Shown one piece after another: positions 3,220-54,666 of a stretch of DNA of 64,000 nucleotides. The position numbers and the translations under genes are program-made. A model generated the notes under the pieces. It saw only the letters and a list, made by a program, of their open reading frames with translations, ran no database searches and had not been told where the DNA came from. Location: contig JAGGVE010000034.1 of assembly GCA_021163505.1 (NCBI GenBank), positions 11,726 to 75,725 of the forward strand. The letters are read 5' to 3'. This stretch comes from Candidatus Iainarchaeum sp. (lineage in GTDB: Archaea; Iainarchaeota; Iainarchaeia; Iainarchaeales; DTGL01). Numbering within the stretch: the first letter of the stretch is position 1; every line of letters begins with the position of its first letter.

Positions 3220-4977
3220 TCATTTAACAGTTACAGATTTTGCAAGATTCCTTGGCTTATCTGGGTCAAGATTGCGTGAAAGCGCCAGGTAATACGCCAG
3301 GAGCTGTATAGGGATTATTGACAGAATCGAAAACAATTTTGATTTTGGGATAGCAAAGAAGTAATCAAAGCATTTCGCTTTTTCAGAGGAAACACCAATT
3401 ATAAAGCCGCCTCTTGATTTCGCTTCTATCGCATTGGTTATGCTTTCATCGCTAGCATCAGAAGCAAACGCAATAACAGGAACATTCTTTTCAATCAAAG
3501 CGATTGTTCCATGCTTCAGTTCAGCTGAAGCAAAGCCTTCGGCATGAATATAGCTAACCTCCTTTATCTTCAGAGCTGCTTCTAAAGCGGTTACAGCACT
3601 TTCTCGCTTGCCTATTATAAATATACTCTTGGCGTTTTTCAATTTCTTAGCAAGCCTTTTAGCTTTGCTCTCATTTGTCTTTATAATCGTGGGCACAAGC
3701 CTTGCCGCTTCGCTCAATTCTTTCTTTGCTTGCTCGTGTTTCTTTATGAGTGAATTCGCAAGCAGATAAAGTACTGAAAGCTGAGCCAAATAGCTCTTTG
3801 TTGCAAGCACACATATTTCCGGGCCTGCATTCATCATTATAGTTGCATCTGCCAAGCGAGTTAAACTTGAACCAACAACATTAACAATACCTATTACACT
3901 CGCGCCTTTTTCCTTAGCGCTCTTTACAGCTTCAAGTATATCAGCGGTTTCGCCGCTCTGCGATAATGCAATAACAACTGTTCTTTTATTCACAAGGTTT
4001 AGAAAGTTTTGGAATTCAGAAGCAAGTATCGCATTAGCCTGAATTGAAGCTATGCTTGCAAAGAAATAGCTCCCAAACATGGCAGCATGCATGCTTGTTC
4101 CACAGCCGATTATGAAAACTTTTTCAGCTTGCTTTATGAGCTTTGTAACTTTTTCAATCAAAGCATTGCTTTGCAAAGAAGCATTTTTTATAGCCTGCTC
4201 CTGCTCATATATTTCCTTGAGCATGTAGTGCTCAAAGCCTCGCTTATCAGCTGAATGAAGCTTTAAATCAATCTTCTTAACGGGTTTATTAATCCGCTTT
4301 CCTGTTTCAATATCGTAAACCTTTGCTTTGCGATTAAATTCAATGAGCTCTGAGTCTTCTAAGAACATCGCTTTTGTTGCATAAGGAGCTATCGCCTGCA
4401 TATCACTAGCAAGCAAAAAAGTGCCATTAGCAAAACCAGCAACAAGAGGCGAGCCTCTCCTAGCGCCAATTAAAGAGTTGTGCAGCTCAGAAATTGCTAC
4501 AATAGCATAGCTTCCTTTCAAATGTAACAATGCTTTTCTAACAGACTCTCTAAAGCATAGGTTCCTGCTTAAGTAGAGCTCTATAAGCATAGGTATTACC
4601 TCTGTATCGGTTTCTGTTGAGAAGGAGAAGCCTTTCTTTGCTAAAAAGTCTCTCAGCTCTTGAAAGTTCTCAATGACGCCGTTATGCACTACGGCAATCT
4701 TTCCATTTTGTGATATATGTGGGTGAGCGTTCCTTACGGAAATTTTGCCGTGAGTGGCCCATCGCGTGTGACCTATCGCACAAGAGCCGTAAAACATTTT
4801 TTTTGGAAGCTTTGTGATCTTTCCTGTGCGTTTGTATATAAGCAAACCGTCATTTTTTACAGCAAGCCCCCAGCTATCATACCCTCTATAATCTAACCTT
4901 TTCAACCCCTCGTAAGCGATTTTGCCTGCATTGCTATTCTTGCAGAGCACACCTATTATTCCGCACATAAGAACCAC
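3220..4977 (-). CDS. glmS: glutamine--fructose-6-phosphate aminotransferase (isomerising)
   Basis: Starts 'MCGIIG' (Ntn-hydrolase Cys2). 585 aa with tandem SIS domains and conserved C-terminal '...KSVTVK'-type tail. Confidence 0.9.
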   Translation of the reverse strand: MVLMCGIIGVLCKNSNAGKIAYEGLKRLDYRGYDSWGLAVKNDGLLIYKRTGKITKLPKKMFYGSCAIGHTRWATHGKISVRNAHPHISQNGKIAVVHNGVIENFQELRDFLAKKGFSFSTETDTEVIPMLIELYLSRNLCFRESVRKALLHLKGSYAIVAISELHNSLIGARRGSPLVAGFANGTFLLASDMQAIAPYATKAMFLEDSELIEFNRKAKVYDIETGKRINKPVKKIDLKLHSADKRGFEHYMLKEIYEQEQAIKNASLQSNALIEKVTKLIKQAEKVFIIGCGTSMHAAMFGSYFFASIASIQANAILASEFQNFLNLVNKRTVVIALSQSGETADILEAVKSAKEKGASVIGIVNVVGSSLTRLADATIMMNAGPEICVLATKSYLAQLSVLYLLANSLIKKHEQAKKELSEAARLVPTIIKTNESKAKRLAKKLKNAKSIFIIGKRESAVTALEAALKIKEVSYIHAEGFASAELKHGTIALIEKNVPVIAFASDASDESITNAIEAKSRGGFIIGVSSEKAKCFDYFFAIPKSKLFSILSIIPIQLLAYYLALSRNLDPDKPRNLAKSVTVK

Positions 4978-17062: not shown

Positions 17063-17248
17063 TTAGGATAACACACCTAAACCAAATACTGTGAATATTA
17101 GCTTGACTAAAAAGCCAAGCAAGCCAATTATTACAATGCCAAGCAGGGTAATCTTTAGCATGAGCTTGTATTCATCCCAGTTTGGTTTCTTTGCTACAGT
17201 CAAAACCCTTCGCGTAGATTCAATAAATTCCGAAAAACTCATTGCCAC
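17063..17248 (-). CDS. secE: protein translocase subunit SecE/Sec61-gamma
   Basis: 61 aa with a single C-terminal TM helix. Conserved position between ftsZ and spt5. Confidence 0.7.
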   Translation of the reverse strand: MAMSFSEFIESTRRVLTVAKKPNWDEYKLMLKITLLGIVIIGLLGFLVKLIFTVFGLGVLS

Positions 17249-18375
17249 TACCCCGTAAACTCAATACCAAGGTCAAGCATTCCTTTTTCCTTATGCATCT
17301 TTTCAAAGTCATCCAAATATGGGAATCTGCCTCCTGCAACAACCACCATCGCCTGAATTCTATTCTTTGCCATCTCTTTGTCAACCATTGCACCCCAGAT
17401 AATATGCGCCTCTGGGTCTATCCTTGAGCTAACGGTTTCAACAACCATCTCTGCCTCTCTTAAAGTCATATCTGCGCCGCCAATTACATTAACCAAAGCG
17501 CGCTTGGACTGGCTTATATCCACATCCAATAGAGGCGAGTTTAAAGCGTTCTCGACAGCTTCCAGAGCACGAGCGTCGCTTGCATCTTCGCTCTGTGACT
17601 CACCTAAGCCAATCATTGCTGCGCCACCGCGCTTTAGTATTGTCCTTAAGTCTGCAAAGTCAAGGTTAATAAGACCTGGCTTTGTAACCATTTCAGTTAT
17701 GCCTTTTACAGCATTTGTAAGCACTTCATCGGCAACCTTAAAGGCAGCATTCACTGGTAGATCTGGAGCTATCTCAAGTATCTTGTCGTTCGGAATTACA
17801 ATAATAGTATCAGCATACTCCCTCAGCCTTGCAAGTCCTTCCAGAGCGTTTTCAGCCCTTCTACGGCCCTCAACAGTAAAGGGTAACGTTACCACTGCAA
17901 CAGTTAGAGCGCCAAGCTCTTTTCCAATTTCTGCCACAACCGGGCTTGCGCCTGTGCCTGTGCCACCGCCCAAGCCACAGGTAATAAATATAAGGTCAGA
18001 ACCACCCAACAACTCAGTAAGCTCATCTACGCTTTCGCGAGCAGAGGCTTCTCCTATCTGTGGATCAGAACCTGAACCTAAACCACGAGTGGTTTCTCTA
18101 CCAATAAGAATGCGCTTATCAGCGCTTGTGTTAAGCAAGTCTTGAGCATCTGTATTGACCGCATAAGTTTCAGCACCAACTATGCCAACCTCATGCATAC
18201 GCTCAATAGTATTACAGCCACCGCCACCGATTCCAACAACTCTAATGCGAGCCTTTGCTTTTTCAAGGATTTTTGTAAGTTCTTCATCGCTGGGCTGCTT
18301 TTTGCCTTTCGCCTTCTTTTTAGTACTATCCACCATCTGAGCTCTTTTTATTGCCTTCCGAACGATTGACTCCAT
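17248..18375 (-). CDS. ftsZ: cell division GTPase FtsZ
   Basis: Tubulin signature 'GGGTGTG'. 375 aa. Conserved archaeal ftsZ-secE-spt5-rpl11 arrangement. Confidence 0.9.
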   Translation of the reverse strand: MESIVRKAIKRAQMVDSTKKKAKGKKQPSDEELTKILEKAKARIRVVGIGGGGCNTIERMHEVGIVGAETYAVNTDAQDLLNTSADKRILIGRETTRGLGSGSDPQIGEASARESVDELTELLGGSDLIFITCGLGGGTGTGASPVVAEIGKELGALTVAVVTLPFTVEGRRRAENALEGLARLREYADTIIVIPNDKILEIAPDLPVNAAFKVADEVLTNAVKGITEMVTKPGLINLDFADLRTILKRGGAAMIGLGESQSEDASDARALEAVENALNSPLLDVDISQSKRALVNVIGGADMTLREAEMVVETVSSRIDPEAHIIWGAMVDKEMAKNRIQAMVVVAGGRFPYLDDFEKMHKEKGMLDLGIEFTG

Positions 18376-18493
18376 TAAAATCCCCCTTTTCAGTTAAAAA
18401 ATTACCCCATAAAATCTTTTTCTCTAAAATGGTTTAAAACCTTATTGTTTATCCTCCCGCAAGCAAAAGGCCTGCTATAATTAAATTTGCAGG

Positions 18494-18521
18494 AAAAAGG
18501 ATTTAAAAAGGATGTTGGAAT
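18494..18521. repeat. 28-nt direct repeat copy A (aaaaggatttaaaaaggatgttggaata)
   Basis: Matches 19016-19043 in 27 of 28 positions. Together the two copies bracket the relE-like/antitoxin cassette. Contains a TTTAAAAA TATA-like core. Confidence 0.6.
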
Positions 18522-18529
18522 AATTGCAA

Positions 18530-18793
18530 GTTACAGTTTATAAGTTTCCTCGCTTCGCTTTTCAATCTTTATCACGATAATTTCTTTTTCACCCTTATCA
18601 ACCATATAAAGAACTCGAAAATTACCAATACGCTTGCGCCTTATATTCCTATAACCTTCAACCTTTATTGTGCCTCTATGCCAGGGATCCTTTCTGATTT
18701 CTTCGCATGCAATTTTTATTCTTTTTTGATACTTTTTGGCAACTTTTTTATCTGCTTCGCGGATTTTGAGGAGAAAAGCAGAACAAAGCTCAT
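18530..18793 (-). pseudogene. RelE/ParE-family toxin gene disrupted by a -1 frameshift in an A6 run
   Basis: The frame from the ATG (overlapping the antitoxin stop as ATGA) gives 'MSFVLLFSSKSAKQIKKLPKSIKK' then a stop. The following frame encodes 'RIKIACEEIRKDPWHRGTIKVEGYRNIRRKRIGNFRVLYMVDKGEKEIIVIKIEKRSEETYKL*'. Joined, these make a full RelE-like 87-aa protein. A7 instead of A6 (plus-strand T-run at 18721-18726) would restore the frame. No ORF of 60 aa or more is present here in the track. Confidence 0.6.
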
Positions 18794-18987
18794 TTAAATA
18801 CCTCTTCGAATCTGAGAAGCTTTCCCTCTGACTTTTCCTTTAAAGAATTAAGTATGTCTTCCACATCTTCTTCCGTAAGGACATTATCTCTATTAACTAT
18901 TCTAACCTTTATAACATCTCCCTCTATCTTTGGTCTGCCAATGAGTTTCAGGCAACCTTTCTTGTATATTGTTTCGTATATTGCCAT
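18790..18987 (-). CDS. DUF104-type (archaeal VapB-like) antitoxin
   Basis: 65 aa 'MAIYETIYKKGCLKLIGRPKIEGDVIKVRIV...' matches the small archaeal antitoxin pattern 'MxxIEAIYENGVLKPLxxxxLxEGxxVxIxI'. Its stop overlaps the start of the relE-like pseudogene. Confidence 0.55.
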   Translation of the reverse strand: MAIYETIYKKGCLKLIGRPKIEGDVIKVRIVNRDNVLTEEDVEDILNSLKEKSEGKLLRFEEVFK

Positions 18988-19015
18988 CGCACCACCATTA
19001 TAAAATATAACCTCT

Positions 19016-19043
19016 AAAAGGATTAAAAAAGGATGTTGGAATA
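19016..19043. repeat. 28-nt direct repeat copy B (aaaaggattaaaaaaggatgttggaata)
   Basis: See copy A. Lies about 30 nt upstream (on the minus strand) of the antitoxin start, immediately after the stop of a 17-codon HicA-like remnant. Confidence 0.6.
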
Positions 19044-19093
19044 TCAGCTCTCCAAAAGCCTTTTAAATTCTTCAAGGGAAATGTGTGCCTGCC

Positions 19094-35059: not shown

Positions 35060-35134
35060 GGGCACGTAGCTTAGTCTGGTTGGAGCACTCGGCTGATAAC
35101 CGAGAGGTCGGCGGTTCAAATCCGCCCGTGCCCA
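35060..35134 (+). tRNA. tRNA-Ile (anticodon GAT)
   Basis: Cloverleaf: GGGCACG/CGUGCCC acceptor, anticodon stem CUCGG/CCGAG, loop CUGAUAA, T-arm GGCGG-UUCAAAU-CCGCC, discriminator A. Confidence 0.85.
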
Positions 35135-35209
35135 CTTCTTTTCTTTGAAAAATCGGATAGTGTTTATTTTGCAAAAACATTTAAAAAATTATATTCTCTT
35201 TTTTCTGCG

Positions 35210-37706: not shown

Positions 37707-38021
37707 CTAGTGCCTAAAAAGTGCCAGCAACAGGCACACAAATATTATCAGCTCAAATACATTTTCGCTTGCATCCGAAAAGAAATAACCTGGTGACACA
37801 AAAAGATCAAGTACTTTTAAAGCCCATTTAACACTGAAGAAGAAAAACGCCAATGCAATAAGCGCAAATCTTTTTGTTTTCTTTTTCCTATAAGCCAAAA
37901 GCGATAAGAGCAACATAGAAAGGGAAAAGAACAGAACTATAGGCCTAAGTATAAAGTCATAGCGGGAAGCAAGCTCAGCGAGCGGCCTCAGATAATCCCA
38001 AGGATACTGTGCAAGCATCAC
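37707..38021 (-). CDS. small membrane protein (3 TM)
   Basis: 104 aa, hydrophobic. Immediately downstream of the regulator. Confidence 0.4.
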   Translation of the reverse strand: MMLAQYPWDYLRPLAELASRYDFILRPIVLFFSLSMLLLSLLAYRKKKTKRFALIALAFFFFSVKWALKVLDLFVSPGYFFSDASENVFELIIFVCLLLALFRH

Positions 38022-38238
38022 AAAACCACCCTAAAAAAGAAGCTGAAAAAGATTTAAAAAGAAGGAGGAAGGGGTGAGGTGAAACCTCGGGGGGTTAAAG
38101 CTCAATAAAAGCTCAATTTTTACTTATAAAGCTTTTGTGGTACAAAGGTGGAAAATTCGTACATTAATCGAATCTCCTCCTTTCTTTCTTTAGAAAGGAA
38201 AGGGCATCAGAAAAATTTTTTCTAATTGCTGGAGATTC

Positions 38239-51971: not shown

Positions 51972-52778
51972 GTGCTTTTCATGGTGAACATTGAAAGTTT
52001 GCGTAAAAAAGTTATCGAAAAAACAAAGATGCAGATAAAAGAACGCCTAGCCGGTAAAGAAGTGCATATAATAAAGGCCGTTAATACGCTTGAGGACCTT
52101 GATTTGGTATTCAATATGCTCTTTGAGGATGTTAGGGATTGGTATTCATTGCATTTCCCGGAGCTTTTTAGATTAGTGAAAGAACCGGAAAAGAGCTTAG
52201 CGCTTATTGCGAACCTTACTTTGCGTAAGAAGTTTGTGAAGGAAGAAATAGTCAAGTACTATGCAAATGAAGAAGTAGCAGCAGAACTAGAGAAAAAAGC
52301 TAAGGAAAGCACTGGTGCTGATTTGAACGAAGAGCAAGCAAAGGTTATAATACAGCTTGCAGAAAAAGCTCTTGAGTTGAAGAAATATAGGGATATGTTA
52401 GCTGGTTTTATTGAAAAGGAGATGCAAAGCAAGCTACCCAATCTTACAAAGATTGCAGGCCCGCTTTTAGGAGCTCGCTTATTGCGAGAGGCCAAATCAT
52501 TGCAAAAGCTCGCGTTTATGCCTTCTTCCACAATACAGGTGATTGGAGCGGAAAAGGCATTGTTCAAGCATCTGCGCAAGGGCACTAAGCCACCAAAGCA
52601 TGGAATAATATTCCAGCATCCTTTGCTTAGAAAAGTGAAAAGAGAGAATCGCGGTAAGATGGCCAGAGCATTAGCAAACAAAATAAGCTTAGCAATAAAA
52701 GAAGACTACTTTGGCAAGAAGGATATAAGTGATAAGGTAGTTAGGGAGCTCGAGGAAAAGGCAAGGCTATTGAGTTAG
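51972..52778 (+). CDS. nop5: Nop5/Nop56-family box C/D snoRNP protein, short form (Nop domain only)
   Basis: 'WYSLHFPEL' start of Nop domain. 'GAEKALFKHLRKGTKPPKHGIIFQHPLL...ENRGKMARALANKISLAIKEDYF'. Only about 45 aa precede the Nop domain, so there is no N-terminal fibrillarin-binding domain or long coiled coil. Confidence 0.75.
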   Translation: MLFMVNIESLRKKVIEKTKMQIKERLAGKEVHIIKAVNTLEDLDLVFNMLFEDVRDWYSLHFPELFRLVKEPEKSLALIANLTLRKKFVKEEIVKYYANEEVAAELEKKAKESTGADLNEEQAKVIIQLAEKALELKKYRDMLAGFIEKEMQSKLPNLTKIAGPLLGARLLREAKSLQKLAFMPSSTIQVIGAEKALFKHLRKGTKPPKHGIIFQHPLLRKVKRENRGKMARALANKISLAIKEDYFGKKDISDKVVRELEEKARLLS

Positions 52779-53150
52779 CTTTTTCTCAATATTTTCTAAC
52801 CTTTTTTCGATCTCGTTTAGTTTTTTCAAAATTTCATTCATTGCATCTTCAACTATTTCATGCGGTGGTTTTGGGTGATGCAATGCAGGTATCGGCCTGC
52901 GCTCGCGAAGGAACTTTAAAACTGACCTATCTCTAAGCTGATAAAATACCTTTCCCTCTTCGCTTGAAGAAGAAACAAGGCCTGCATTTTCAAGAATTTT
53001 GAGATGAAAATCTACTGTTTGTGGGGCTCGTTTTAGATGTCCAGCTATTTCGCTCAAGTACTTCTTCCCGGTGGTGATACTATAGTAAGACCACCTGTGC
53101 CGCCATATGCAAGACATTATGGTGGAGAACCATGGAGCGAACCAACCCAT
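52767..53150 (-). CDS. ArsR-like winged-helix regulator with C-terminal coiled coil
   Basis: 'KYLSEIAGHLKRAPQTVDFHLKILENAGLVSSSSEEGKVFYQL'. 127 aa. Confidence 0.5.
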   Translation of the reverse strand: MGWFAPWFSTIMSCIWRHRWSYYSITTGKKYLSEIAGHLKRAPQTVDFHLKILENAGLVSSSSEEGKVFYQLRDRSVLKFLRERRPIPALHHPKPPHEIVEDAMNEILKKLNEIEKRLENIEKKLTQ

Positions 53151-53286
53151 ACAGACATTATGGATACACTAAATGAACTAAGAGAAAGGCTAGAAAGAAT
53201 TGAAGATATTTTAAGGAGACGATGAAGCTAAAAAGTGGGGCCAAGCACACCCAAGTTTTTCTTTTTTTAATTTTGAATGCGCACAA

Positions 53287-53742
53287 CTATCTTCTCTTGT
53301 ATCTCAGTTTTTTAATATCGAATCTAGGAAGGGCTGATTTTAAAATTATCTTATTTCTCGCATAGTCAAAAGTTACAACAAAATTAGAAAGAAAAGGAGT
53401 GCCTAAGATTATATCTTTATGAAGAGGATTCTCCACAGGCACTATAACATCGAAAAGTTCTTTAAATTGGCTATGGCCTTTTCTGATTTCTATGTATATT
53501 TTAGCTGTCTTGAAACGAAACTCTGTTTCTGCACCTTGACAAACATCAACTTTTTTAGAAAGCTCAAGCCCAAAATATTCGGCTATATCTTGTGGAATAT
53601 AAACAACATCAGAACCAGTATCCAGTACGGCAATAAAATCTTTATTTAGCCCTCCATAGCTTAGTGTTGTGGGTATCTTTGGTCTTAATGTCCAATGTGT
53701 TTCATCTATTTTTTCTCTTTTAAATTTAAAAGTAAATTTCAT
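53287..53742 (-). CDS. retropepsin-like (clan AA) aspartic protease, single domain
   Basis: 'AVLDTGSDVVYIP' (DTG active-site loop) and C-terminal 'IILGTPFLSNFVVTFDY' (hydrophobic-G-R/T-D-F-L flap/dimer motif). 151 aa. Confidence 0.6.
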   Translation of the reverse strand: MKFTFKFKREKIDETHWTLRPKIPTTLSYGGLNKDFIAVLDTGSDVVYIPQDIAEYFGLELSKKVDVCQGAETEFRFKTAKIYIEIRKGHSQFKELFDVIVPVENPLHKDIILGTPFLSNFVVTFDYARNKIILKSALPRFDIKKLRYKRR

Positions 53743-53746
53743 GTTC

Positions 53747-53950
53747 TCACAAGACGTGAATTGCCTGATCGGGCACTCTTGCGAATAAGGCCCTTACACC
53801 AGGAAACTTTTTATCAACTTTTTCCGCCACTTCTTTGAACGATTTTCCAAAAGCAATTACGTTATTATTGTAAATAGCCACCCATTTGCCCTGATATTTG
53901 CTCAAATCAGCTTTTGCATAGTATTCGTAGTTGTTCATTTTTCCACCCAT
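53747..53950 (-). CDS. small protein with GKWVA motif (DUF5678-like, frequent partner of archaeal retropepsin-like proteases)
   Basis: 67 aa 'KYQGKWVAIYNNNVIAFGKSFKEVAEKV...'. Four nt upstream of the protease gene. Confidence 0.4.
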   Translation of the reverse strand: MGGKMNNYEYYAKADLSKYQGKWVAIYNNNVIAFGKSFKEVAEKVDKKFPGVRALFARVPDQAIHVL

Positions 53951-53985: not shown

Positions 53986-54666
53986 TTGGGGGTTTTAGTT
54001 TTTATGCGTGAAATCTTTCCTGGAATTTATAAGTGGCGCAATAAGCTCTGGACAAAAAACCTTGTGCCTGGTCAGCAGGTTTATGGTGAACGTTTAGCTA
54101 CTTTTAATGACATTGAGTACCGCGAATGGAATCCCTTTCGCTCGAAGCTAGCAGCAGCAATAGTTAAAAAGCTAAAGCATTTGCCTTTAAGAGCTGGCTC
54201 CAGGGTTCTGTATCTTGGTATTGCTGAAGGAACAACTGCTTCACATATAAGCGATATCATTGGCAAAGAAGGCGTAATTTTTGGAGTAGACATAAGCGAG
54301 AAGTGCTTGGCGAAATTATTGCAGATATGCGAAGCGCGTAAAAATATAATTCCTGTGTTAGCAGATGCAAATAAGCCAGAAAGCTATGAAGCTTATGTAA
54401 AAGAGATAAAACCACAAATTCTTTACCAAGATGTTTCGCAGAAGAATCAGGCGGAAATATTCAATAAAAATGCGAGGCTTTTTTTAAAAAAAGGCGCTTA
54501 CGGTTTGCTAGCGTTGAAAGCGCCAAGCATAAGTTCAACTAAAAAACCAAGCAGAGTGTTTAGGAAGGAAGAAAAAAAGCTGTTAGAGGAATTCGAAATA
54601 ATTGAAAAAATTCCTTTGAGCCCGTTTGAAAAAAAGCACAGGTTTTATTTGCTTAGGAAAAGGTGA
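53986..54666 (+). CDS. flpA: fibrillarin-like rRNA/tRNA 2'-O-methyltransferase
   Basis: 'EYREWNPFRSKLAAAI', 'VLYLGIAEGTTASHISDIIG', 'VIFGVDIS', 'NIIPVLADANKPESY'. 226 aa. Confidence 0.9.
   Translation: MGVLVFMREIFPGIYKWRNKLWTKNLVPGQQVYGERLATFNDIEYREWNPFRSKLAAAIVKKLKHLPLRAGSRVLYLGIAEGTTASHISDIIGKEGVIFGVDISEKCLAKLLQICEARKNIIPVLADANKPESYEAYVKEIKPQILYQDVSQKNQAEIFNKNARLFLKKGAYGLLALKAPSISSTKKPSRVFRKEEKKLLEEFEIIEKIPLSPFEKKHRFYLLRKR

Follow-up and report, generated by a model that had tools for sequence, protein, structure and literature searches.

A 28-nt repeat matching the probable distal ftsZ promoter element bounds small toxin-antitoxin modules in Candidatus Iainarchaeum

Toxin-antitoxin cassettes and the locus in front of ftsZ

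In Neisseria, minimal mobile elements are hotspots with conserved genes on either side, at which homologous recombination replaces one cassette by an alternative one. The pdif modules of Acinetobacter plasmids carry toxin-antitoxin (TA) or resistance genes and are flanked, in inverted orientation, by 28-bp XerC/D sites that consist of two inverted 11-bp arms and a 6-bp spacer. The locus described here lies in a 64-kb stretch of DNA from Candidatus Iainarchaeum sp. (contig JAGGVE010000034.1, positions 11,726 to 75,725; ‘the window’ denotes this whole stretch) and consists of two small TA modules lined up in front of ftsZ and bounded by copies of a 28-nt direct repeat, designated E. Integrase-less attC clusters (CALINs), including archaeal ones, TA-rich archaeal integrons and the TA cassettes of Vibrio superintegrons have also been described (PMC9668308). 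The genes in front of ftsZ belong to ordinary, known TA families, and the locus is distinctive in that its bounding repeat copies what is probably the distal ftsZ promoter of the host. It is considered probable that E is a duplicated promoter module which also serves as a recombination substrate.

The likeness to integrons and CALINs consists of the cassettes of one or two genes in the same orientation, the abundance of TA genes, the bounding repeats and a content that varies among close relatives. E is, however, a short identical direct repeat without a hairpin or attC-like palindrome, and no IntI gene is found nearby. It stands 5' of each module and is promoter-like, whereas most integron cassettes have no promoter, with variable attC sites behind them; the array is moreover situated in front of a core gene. 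An attC site is an imperfect palindrome folding into a hairpin, with R''/R' core sites RYYYAAC ... GTTRRRY. No conserved structure was found here and the motif TTCCAAC differs from RYYYAAC at its first base, on which grounds an attC-like hairpin site was rejected. An Xer/dif-like site, considered for the length of 28 bp, was rejected as well, since E as read from its sequence has no two inverted arms.

With the Neisseria hotspots the locus shares its conserved flanks (the IF-2B or radical SAM gene on one side, ftsZ on the other), the alternative small cassettes, the lack of mobility genes and, presumably, the use of host recombination. It differs in that the host is a DPANN archaeon and in that a repeated promoter element also forms internal borders of the cassettes, allowing precise loss module by module. 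Small TA modules bracketed by 28-bp repeats are likewise found in pdif modules, which are shuffled between replicons, but E is a direct repeat without dyad symmetry and matches a TATA promoter. As for the genes, the repaired toxin matches archaeal RelE proteins (M. jannaschii RelE3, 3bpq; P. horikoshii aRelE, 1wmi) and shows the ATGA overlap with a small upstream antitoxin gene; the partner antitoxin, however, is weakly AF2212-like/DUF104 and not RelB-like, and the toxin gene is frameshifted in the window. A HicB-like antitoxin gene adjoining a HicA toxin gene is typical of type II hicAB, but here the order is hicB followed by hicA, and the window keeps 17 hicA codons.

The repeat as a probable promoter element of ftsZ

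The 28-mer reads AAAAGGATT(T/A)AAAAAGGATGTTGGAATA and occurs exactly twice in the window, with 27 of the 28 positions matching, as had been noticed in a first-pass annotation of the sequence. The coordinates given there hold for the ftsZ-distal copy (E2), while those of the ftsZ-proximal copy (E1) had to be moved by one base, from 18494-18521 to 18495-18522. The cassette between the copies, estimated at about 490 bp, measures 493 bp (18523-19015) and holds an antitoxin gene and a broken relE. In most other assemblies of this population the two copies are 28/28 identical. The element holds a pair of ATCCTTTT units at a spacing of 11 nt, roughly one helical turn.

No match to the 28-mer was obtained in 100 dinucleotide-preserving shuffles of the window, and the same structure was present in more than ten independent assemblies; chance or an assembly artefact as the source of the repeat structure was rejected on this basis. 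Ten AAAAGGAT octamers were counted in the window, five of them within 18495-19347 and the other five inside genes. In a metagenome scan the 23-nt core of E was found on only three contigs, all from this same locus, and a scan of viral contigs for the core gave none; the RelE protein had no viral relatives either. On the basis of these metagenome and viral scans, the collection of genomes having been scanned with FtsZ, a widespread genomic repeat or the end of a mobile element was rejected. The first-pass annotation had also allowed for a promoter motif widespread upstream of unrelated genes: the full 28-mer is not widespread, but its 3' two-thirds correspond to the canonical promoter core.

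An FtsZ-based scan of species-representative genomes yielded 80 syntenic loci. In Candidatus Iainarchaeum relatives without TA genes at this position, the conserved core TTTTTWAATCCTTTT lies about 130-150 nt upstream of ftsZ. Twelve relatives, with FtsZ identities of 76-98%, have three conserved blocks upstream of ftsZ in common. The distal block has the core TTT.AATC.TTT, which is invariant in 12/12 relatives and equals the 3' part of the 28-mer. The proximal block, AAAGGTTTTAAAC, resembles a B recognition element (BRE) plus TATA box, with AAGGTTTTAAAC invariant or nearly so, and the third is a leader block, TAATTTT.TAAC...GGGGGA. No TA homologue is found at the locus in eight of these twelve relatives (L017-L023, L064), which indicates that the element is an ancestral part of the ftsZ upstream region and did not arrive with the cassette. 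The earlier placement of one repeat copy in the ftsZ promoter region agrees with this conservation and with the position of E1, which ends 119 nt upstream of the ftsZ ATG at 18375. The left part of E (TATTCCAACATCC) is clade-specific, and its left unit is not conserved outside the clade.

The core of E is the TATA motif that is used elsewhere in the window (TTTTTWAATCC). TTTTTAATCC starts 35 nt before tRNA-Ile (35060-35135), TTTTTAAATC is located about 30 nt before the start of the gene at 37707-38021, and similar TTTTAAATC motifs are present upstream of other genes of the window. Wherever an examined lineage has the two-unit element, 32-34 nt separate the TATA-like core from the start codon of the TA gene, with a GGTG-type Shine-Dalgarno sequence in between. 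For E2 this distance is 34 nt, measured from the TATA-like TTTTTTAAT to the antitoxin ATG, and the Shine-Dalgarno-like GGTGGTG (within 18982-18996) precedes the gene. A TTATAG-like initiator motif follows every E copy at a fixed distance, as expected for a start of transcription. E is thus an A/T-rich element at constant distance which matches the consensus of its own genome, as an archaeal BRE/TATA promoter does. Judged by these sequence features, E is probably a promoter module of which a copy stands in front of each TA module.

A decayed third copy (E3), which was absent from the first-pass account of the repeats, is present upstream of hicB. Its core AAATCCTTTTT is found at 19340-19350, together with an initiator-like TTTTATAG. 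One 11-nt unit, including the T-run/TATA, is missing from E3 in the window when compared with the related locus L012, which has both units. Outside the 28-mer the likeness between the E copies declines gradually (repeats D3 and D10), as expected of old duplicates with a selected core. Folding of both strands in both E contexts gave no conserved structure (E alone 0 kcal/mol; context of E1 z = +1.2 and +1.4), and an Rfam search of 17200-19500 gave only a chance-level match.

An imperfect inverted repeat (AAAAGGCTTTTGGA / TTCCAACATCCTTTT), followed by T6, is formed by the 3' end of the hicA remnant (19047-19075) and the left part of E2 (19027-19043). It is terminator-like (z = -2.3) and the only hairpin seen in the two E contexts, and it is not kept in L012 or L016. 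Elsewhere in the window, a 103-aa gene without Pfam match is followed by a 179-aa HTH/MarR-like gene (37707-38060, minus strand); the sequence upstream of the pair, CTTCTTTTTAAATCTTTTTCAG, closely resembles the ancestral form of the ftsZ distal element.

Gain, loss and decay of the modules

Every combination of modules was found among the relatives: hicBA alone, antitoxin/relE alone, or the two together. All junctions fall in E. The order IF-2B gene (minus strand), E, hicB-hicA, E and ftsZ leader is seen in L104, where both genes are intact and the E copies are 28/28 identical with lineage-specific substitutions, and in L014 (FtsZ 98%), where 50 nt are deleted within hicB. L011 (hicA-like end, E, ftsZ leader) fits the L014 type, with only 8 nt of left flank. 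In L016 (FtsZ 90%) the radical SAM gene is followed by one unit, hicB-hicA, E and ftsZ, with stop codons in both hicB and hicA. L015 and L096 (FtsZ 93%) have the order radical SAM gene, E, antitoxin-relE, E and ftsZ, without hicBA. Both modules are present in the window and in L012.

The alignment to cassette-free relatives that the first-pass annotation had suggested shows the module to be discrete. L014, L016 and probably L011 have no antitoxin/relE module and keep a single 28-mer, which joins the hicA stop to the ftsZ upstream region. L012 and L016, the former with and the latter without the cassette, are of one species. From E into ftsZ, over 259 nt, their identity is 100%, and for hicB together with the radical SAM 3' end it is 94.5%. 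The antitoxin/relE cassette is a presence/absence polymorphism within one species. The difference between the window and its relatives can be either an insertion here or a deletion in the relatives.

Within a genome the E copies have lineage-specific changes in common, namely ATTC in L015, AATTCAGC in L104 and a T variant in L014, each present in both copies. Such sharing implies gene conversion, repeated re-duplication or co-selection. The ftsZ-proximal E does not differ between the window and the L012/L016 species, while nucleotide identity is 78% for ftsZ, 85% for the radical SAM gene and 73% for secE-spt5, which suggests that E is under selection. In the same comparison the TA genes are 88-92% identical, a hint that the TA region has been laterally exchanged.

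Distant homologues of the cassette (L094, L112-L114) are located at other loci without E. The AF2212-like plus RelE cassette of L094 (GCA_054030055.1, JBPNSQ010000020, 4001-4461; antitoxin 65% and toxin 74% identical) is situated between two subunit genes of a 2-oxoacid:ferredoxin oxidoreductase, with gaps of only 11 and 25 nt, and does not carry its own promoter. TTTAAATAA is present at both of its ends. A general direct-repeat footprint of the cassette family was rejected, as these ends show only a 9-12-nt likeness.

Homologues of hicB, 66-68% identical, were also found in two other metagenome-assembled genomes (MAGs) of the Iainarchaeota, L105 (GCA_016931555.1, JAFGEM010000041, 1-3165) and L106 (GCA_043816965.1, JBDRHK010000054, 1-5219). 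They are part of same-strand arrays of one- or two-gene cassettes, which hold hicBA, NTP_transf_2/HEPN, repeated pairs of 89 + 110 aa and a glycosyltransferase. A conserved repeat of about 32-47 nt, (C)TCATCTTTCGGGCAAGATGGGCGGACTGAGGC, comes after each cassette, and the layout is like that of an integron or CALIN. This repeat is not present in the window, has no Rfam match and forms a weak hairpin at most.

The start of relE overlaps the stop of the antitoxin gene (ATGA), as described before. Frame 0 of relE covers 25 codons and closes at 18716; the remainder of the gene lies in the -1 frame. The single-base deficit in an A-run to which the first-pass annotation ascribed the split is real (A6 instead of A7), but the run had been placed one base too low (18721-18726). 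With one A added, the product of 87 aa matches PF05016 (ParE_toxin) over residues 6-82 with 36.6 bits (cut-off 23), in agreement with the RelE/ParE family proposed for it. The closest solved relatives of the repaired protein are RelE3 (3bpq_B, E = 6e-5), aRelE (1wmi_A) and E. coli RelE. The antitoxin gene is intact, as stated at first; for the DUF104 label there is a sub-threshold match to AF2212-like/DUF104 (PF01954; 17.3 bits, cut-off 21.6, E = 0.007). Only four homologue clusters were found for the antitoxin, of which P0004 (65% identical) carries a weak precomputed PF01954 match, and there was no NCBIfam match and no sequence relative in the PDB.

Other metagenome assemblies containing the same population were found by look-up of the exact FtsZ protein of the window. 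A6 is shared by the window and seven further assemblies with identical FtsZ (L001-L007), while L008 and L009 have A7, linked to a T>C change 16 nt downstream, and an intact 87-aa ParE_toxin gene. The intact allele (P0125) is present on five contigs (L008, L009, L107, L110 and L111), and A7 occurs in L012 as well. L107 (A7) and L003 (A6) originate from the same JGI sample (3300017593) and are 99.85% identical over 3.26 kb; A6 is therefore a segregating loss-of-function allele and not an assembly error. Sequencing error at the A-run was rejected, with A6 in seven other assemblies and linked to a single-nucleotide polymorphism (SNP), and A7 on five contigs. The later inactivation of the toxin, as first proposed, is thus real and recent, intact alleles being present in the same species. 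In L003 the antitoxin gene (about 3829-4023) is frameshifted by an extra C, which fits relaxed selection after the loss of the toxin. A further disruption in the same population was seen in L002 (ERZ23499514, 1701-2566), where UbiA is split into two open reading frames (ORFs) of 135 aa.

The 73-aa product of hicB has a weak match to HicB_lk_antitox (17.6 bits, below the cut-off of 27). An identical protein is named HicB family antitoxin by NCBI, and close homologues adjoin HicA genes. The orthologues P0006 and P0007 measure 77-79 aa; compared with the 77-aa forms, hicB of the window is short of its last four codons, having been clipped by the hicA deletion. The HicA-like remnant that had been recognised next to the downstream repeat aligns to the C-terminus of the full-length HicA of L014 (68.3 bits, PF07927), and its stop TGA (19044-19046) directly adjoins E2. 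With 17 codons left, it no longer amounts to a HicA gene. The truncations of hicA in the window and in L012 are two different, independent deletions. In L014 (286-454) the 50-nt deletion breaks the hicB frame while hicA appears intact. For a functional toxin this is surprising, barring neutralisation by a different HicB or an inactive hicA. The hicBA module is degraded differently in almost every examined lineage.

The features of the locus are listed in Table 1. The neighbouring genes encode IF-2B, a winged-helix regulator, UbiA, a radical SAM enzyme, FtsZ, SecE, Spt5 and ribosomal proteins, and ftsZ heads the conserved block ftsZ-secE-spt5-L11-L1-L10-P1.

Table 1. Features upstream of ftsZ in the window, in upstream to downstream order (E, 28-nt repeat; sequences given for the minus strand).
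Feature	Position	Strand	Basis or remark
Radical SAM/SPASM gene	19373-20797	minus	first in order, before hicB
E3, decayed third E copy, upstream of hicB	19323-19352	minus	repeat D3, 81% over 26 nt to 18480-18505; repeat D10
hicB-like antitoxin gene, 73 aa	19094-19315	minus	weak HicB_lk_antitox match; NCBI name of identical protein
HicA tail, 17 codons and stop, GLRQAHISLEEFKRLLES / LRQAHISLEEFKRLLES	19044-19097	minus	alignment to full-length HicA of L014, L016 and L104
E2, copy upstream of the antitoxin/relE operon, TATTCCAACATCCTTTTTTAATCCTTTT	19016-19043	minus	
Antitoxin gene, 65 aa, intact, weakly AF2212-like/DUF104	18790-18987	minus	
relE (RelE/ParE superfamily) pseudogene	18531-18793	minus	PF05016 match of the repaired product
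A6 run, site of the inactivating 1-nt deletion (intact alleles: A7)	18722-18727	minus	
E1, copy between relE and ftsZ, TATTCCAACATCCTTTTTAAATCCTTTT	18495-18522	minus	
Initiator-like AATTATAGCAGG	18471-18482	minus	distance would fit a transcription start from E1
Proximal ftsZ promoter candidate (P2), AATAAGGTTTTAAACCATTTT	18426-18446	minus	BRE and TATA-like; about 60 nt upstream of the ATG
Conserved ftsZ leader block TAATTTTTTAACTGAAAAGGGGGA	18381-18404	minus	with Shine-Dalgarno-like GGGGGA
ftsZ	17248-18375	minus	Tubulin 160 bits, FtsZ_C 98 bits

A block composed of the genes for the 183-aa winged-helix regulator, UbiA and the radical SAM enzyme stands between IF-2B and the TA array in the window (20810-22264) and in L016, and probably in the same position in L012 and L015, both of which are only partly covered. 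The block is missing in L014 (compared over 1-260), in L104 and in the more distant relatives L017 and L018, and there IF-2B and the ftsZ side face each other directly. On its right the block ends, in the comparison, within the left half of the hicB-associated E copy, and no E copy was found at its far side (22256-22830).

Archaeal nop5 and fibrillarin genes are usually adjacent. In the window, three small opposite-strand genes (52767-53938, minus strand) lie between nop5 (51972-52778) and fibrillarin (53986-54666), encoding an HTH_5 regulator, a weakly gag-asp-protease-like protein of 151 aa and a DUF5678 protein of 63 aa. Possibly this interval represents a second, small site of insertion within a conserved pair of genes.

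Proposed mechanism and alternative explanations

For promoter activity, termination and the mechanism of recombination we propose the following, building on the observed anatomy, conservation, spacing, presence/absence variants and allele distribution. The ancestral E copy would be the distal element upstream of ftsZ, followed by the second, proximal BRE/TATA-like promoter P2. E is composed of the clade-specific left part, the canonical TATA box TTTTTWAATCC and a T-run, and in the clade of the window the array reads (E-hicB-hicA)-(E-antitoxin-relE)-E-P2-ftsZ, with each module headed by its own E. Each copy would start transcription of the module after it, and its T-runs would probably help to terminate the preceding module. 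Being identical direct repeats, the copies are proposed to act as recombination substrates too. Unequal crossing-over or deletion between two copies would remove a module and leave one E, gene conversion would keep the copies within a genome alike, and DNA from related strains could replace or add modules, anchored on E and the flanking genes. Both modules of the window are decaying: hicA is down to 17 codons, the hicB promoter has lost one unit and relE has gone from A7 to A6, while the antitoxin of relE is intact.

Some points weigh against this proposal. It leaves the first duplication of E unexplained, and a tract of 28 nt is short for homologous recombination or gene conversion. The proposed promoter and terminator roles of E are deduced from sequence and spacing, the TATA box does not account for the left 13 nt of the element, and the 28/28 identity of E across species exceeds the obvious needs of a promoter. 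Within this genome the search for E covered the 64-kb window only. Between the window and L012, identity is 90-92% for the antitoxin/relE module, with the neighbouring housekeeping genes at 73-85%; this suggests lateral exchange and therefore some efficient targeting mechanism.

Such figures would also be in line with E as the attachment site of a site-specific cassette system (integron, att or Xer-like) whose recombinase is encoded elsewhere, the promoter likeness being incidental or a second function. The presence/absence junctions lie exactly at E with one copy left, and the E variants common to the copies within a genome are also expected of a duplicated or reconstituted target; the documented archaeal integrons and CALINs and the arrays of L105 and L106, with their different conserved repeat, fit this explanation as well. 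It is nevertheless held to be unlikely. No integron integrase adjoins the array, and no integrase, transposase or other recombinase domain was found among the annotated genes of the window. E has neither dyad symmetry nor a predicted hairpin and was found only at this locus in the data searched, and the distant cassette homologues do without it. Its core is moreover present upstream of ftsZ in cassette-free relatives, and the degraded likeness extends past the 28-mer. A related proposal, in which E is at once the promoter and the recombination site of an integron-like cassette platform of DPANN archaea, integrase-independent or with a recombinase elsewhere, is given an equally low probability. 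If it were true, TA modules would be captured before ftsZ under copies of its distal promoter, with TA expression possibly tied to the control of cell division, and the repeat-bounded arrays of L105 and L106 would be sister platforms. Of the two origins considered in the first-pass annotation, the duplication of a promoter element agrees with the conserved core and the TATA match, whereas a target-site duplication left by a transposable TA element is very improbable. Direct repeats do bracket a small cassette and the single-copy relatives do resemble empty sites. Target-site duplications, however, do not usually exceed about 15 bp, far less than 28 bp. There are also three copies of E at the locus instead of two, without terminal inverted repeats at the cassette ends or a transposase; hicBA is bracketed by the same element in L014 and L104, and the likeness fades gradually outside the repeat.

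E could further be an operator for a specific regulator, either a TA antitoxin complex or a regulator of cell division, by which the TA modules and ftsZ would be co-regulated. This idea is compatible with a promoter function, and the two ATCCTTTT units could be binding sites about one helical turn apart; the interspecies conservation of 28/28 goes beyond what a TATA box needs and the same element stands before three transcription units at one locus. It is doubtful all the same, as two unrelated antitoxin families (HicB-like and AF2212-like) would need one common operator, the 73-aa HicB-like protein has no significant Pfam match to a DNA-binding domain, the core is present in relatives without TA genes at the locus and the left unit is not conserved outside the clade. 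As to relE, low expression from A6 by -1 ribosomal frameshifting or transcriptional slippage, or phase variation, in which case the gene would not be a pseudogene, has very little probability. The RelE frame would be regained if tRNA-Lys slipped by -1 on AAA AAA, two codons ahead of the stop in the zero frame, and both alleles are found together in one metagenome. The A6 run, however, is out of register with the canonical slippery heptamer X XXY YYZ, the more distant orthologues of L015 and L094 have an uninterrupted gene in which no homopolymer of A6/A7 length occupies the corresponding position, and the linkage of A6 to the nearby SNP indicates haplotypes and not rapid switching. The frameshifted antitoxin of L003, a contig with A6, fits decay after toxin loss and speaks against an expressed relE.

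The locus is a clean natural case of small TA modules that are gained and lost in a reduced archaeal genome without a visible mobility gene. Since identical copies of a probable host promoter delimit the modules, each of them would be expressed alone and lost precisely. Several stages are visible at this one locus: an intact hicBA, four independent routes of hicBA degradation and a relE frameshift that is still segregating in one community. The current understanding of TA biology is unchanged by these results, and the locus represents a modest variant of known TA-hotspot biology. With TA modules directly upstream of ftsZ and headed by its distal promoter element, a link between TA expression and that of cell division becomes testable.

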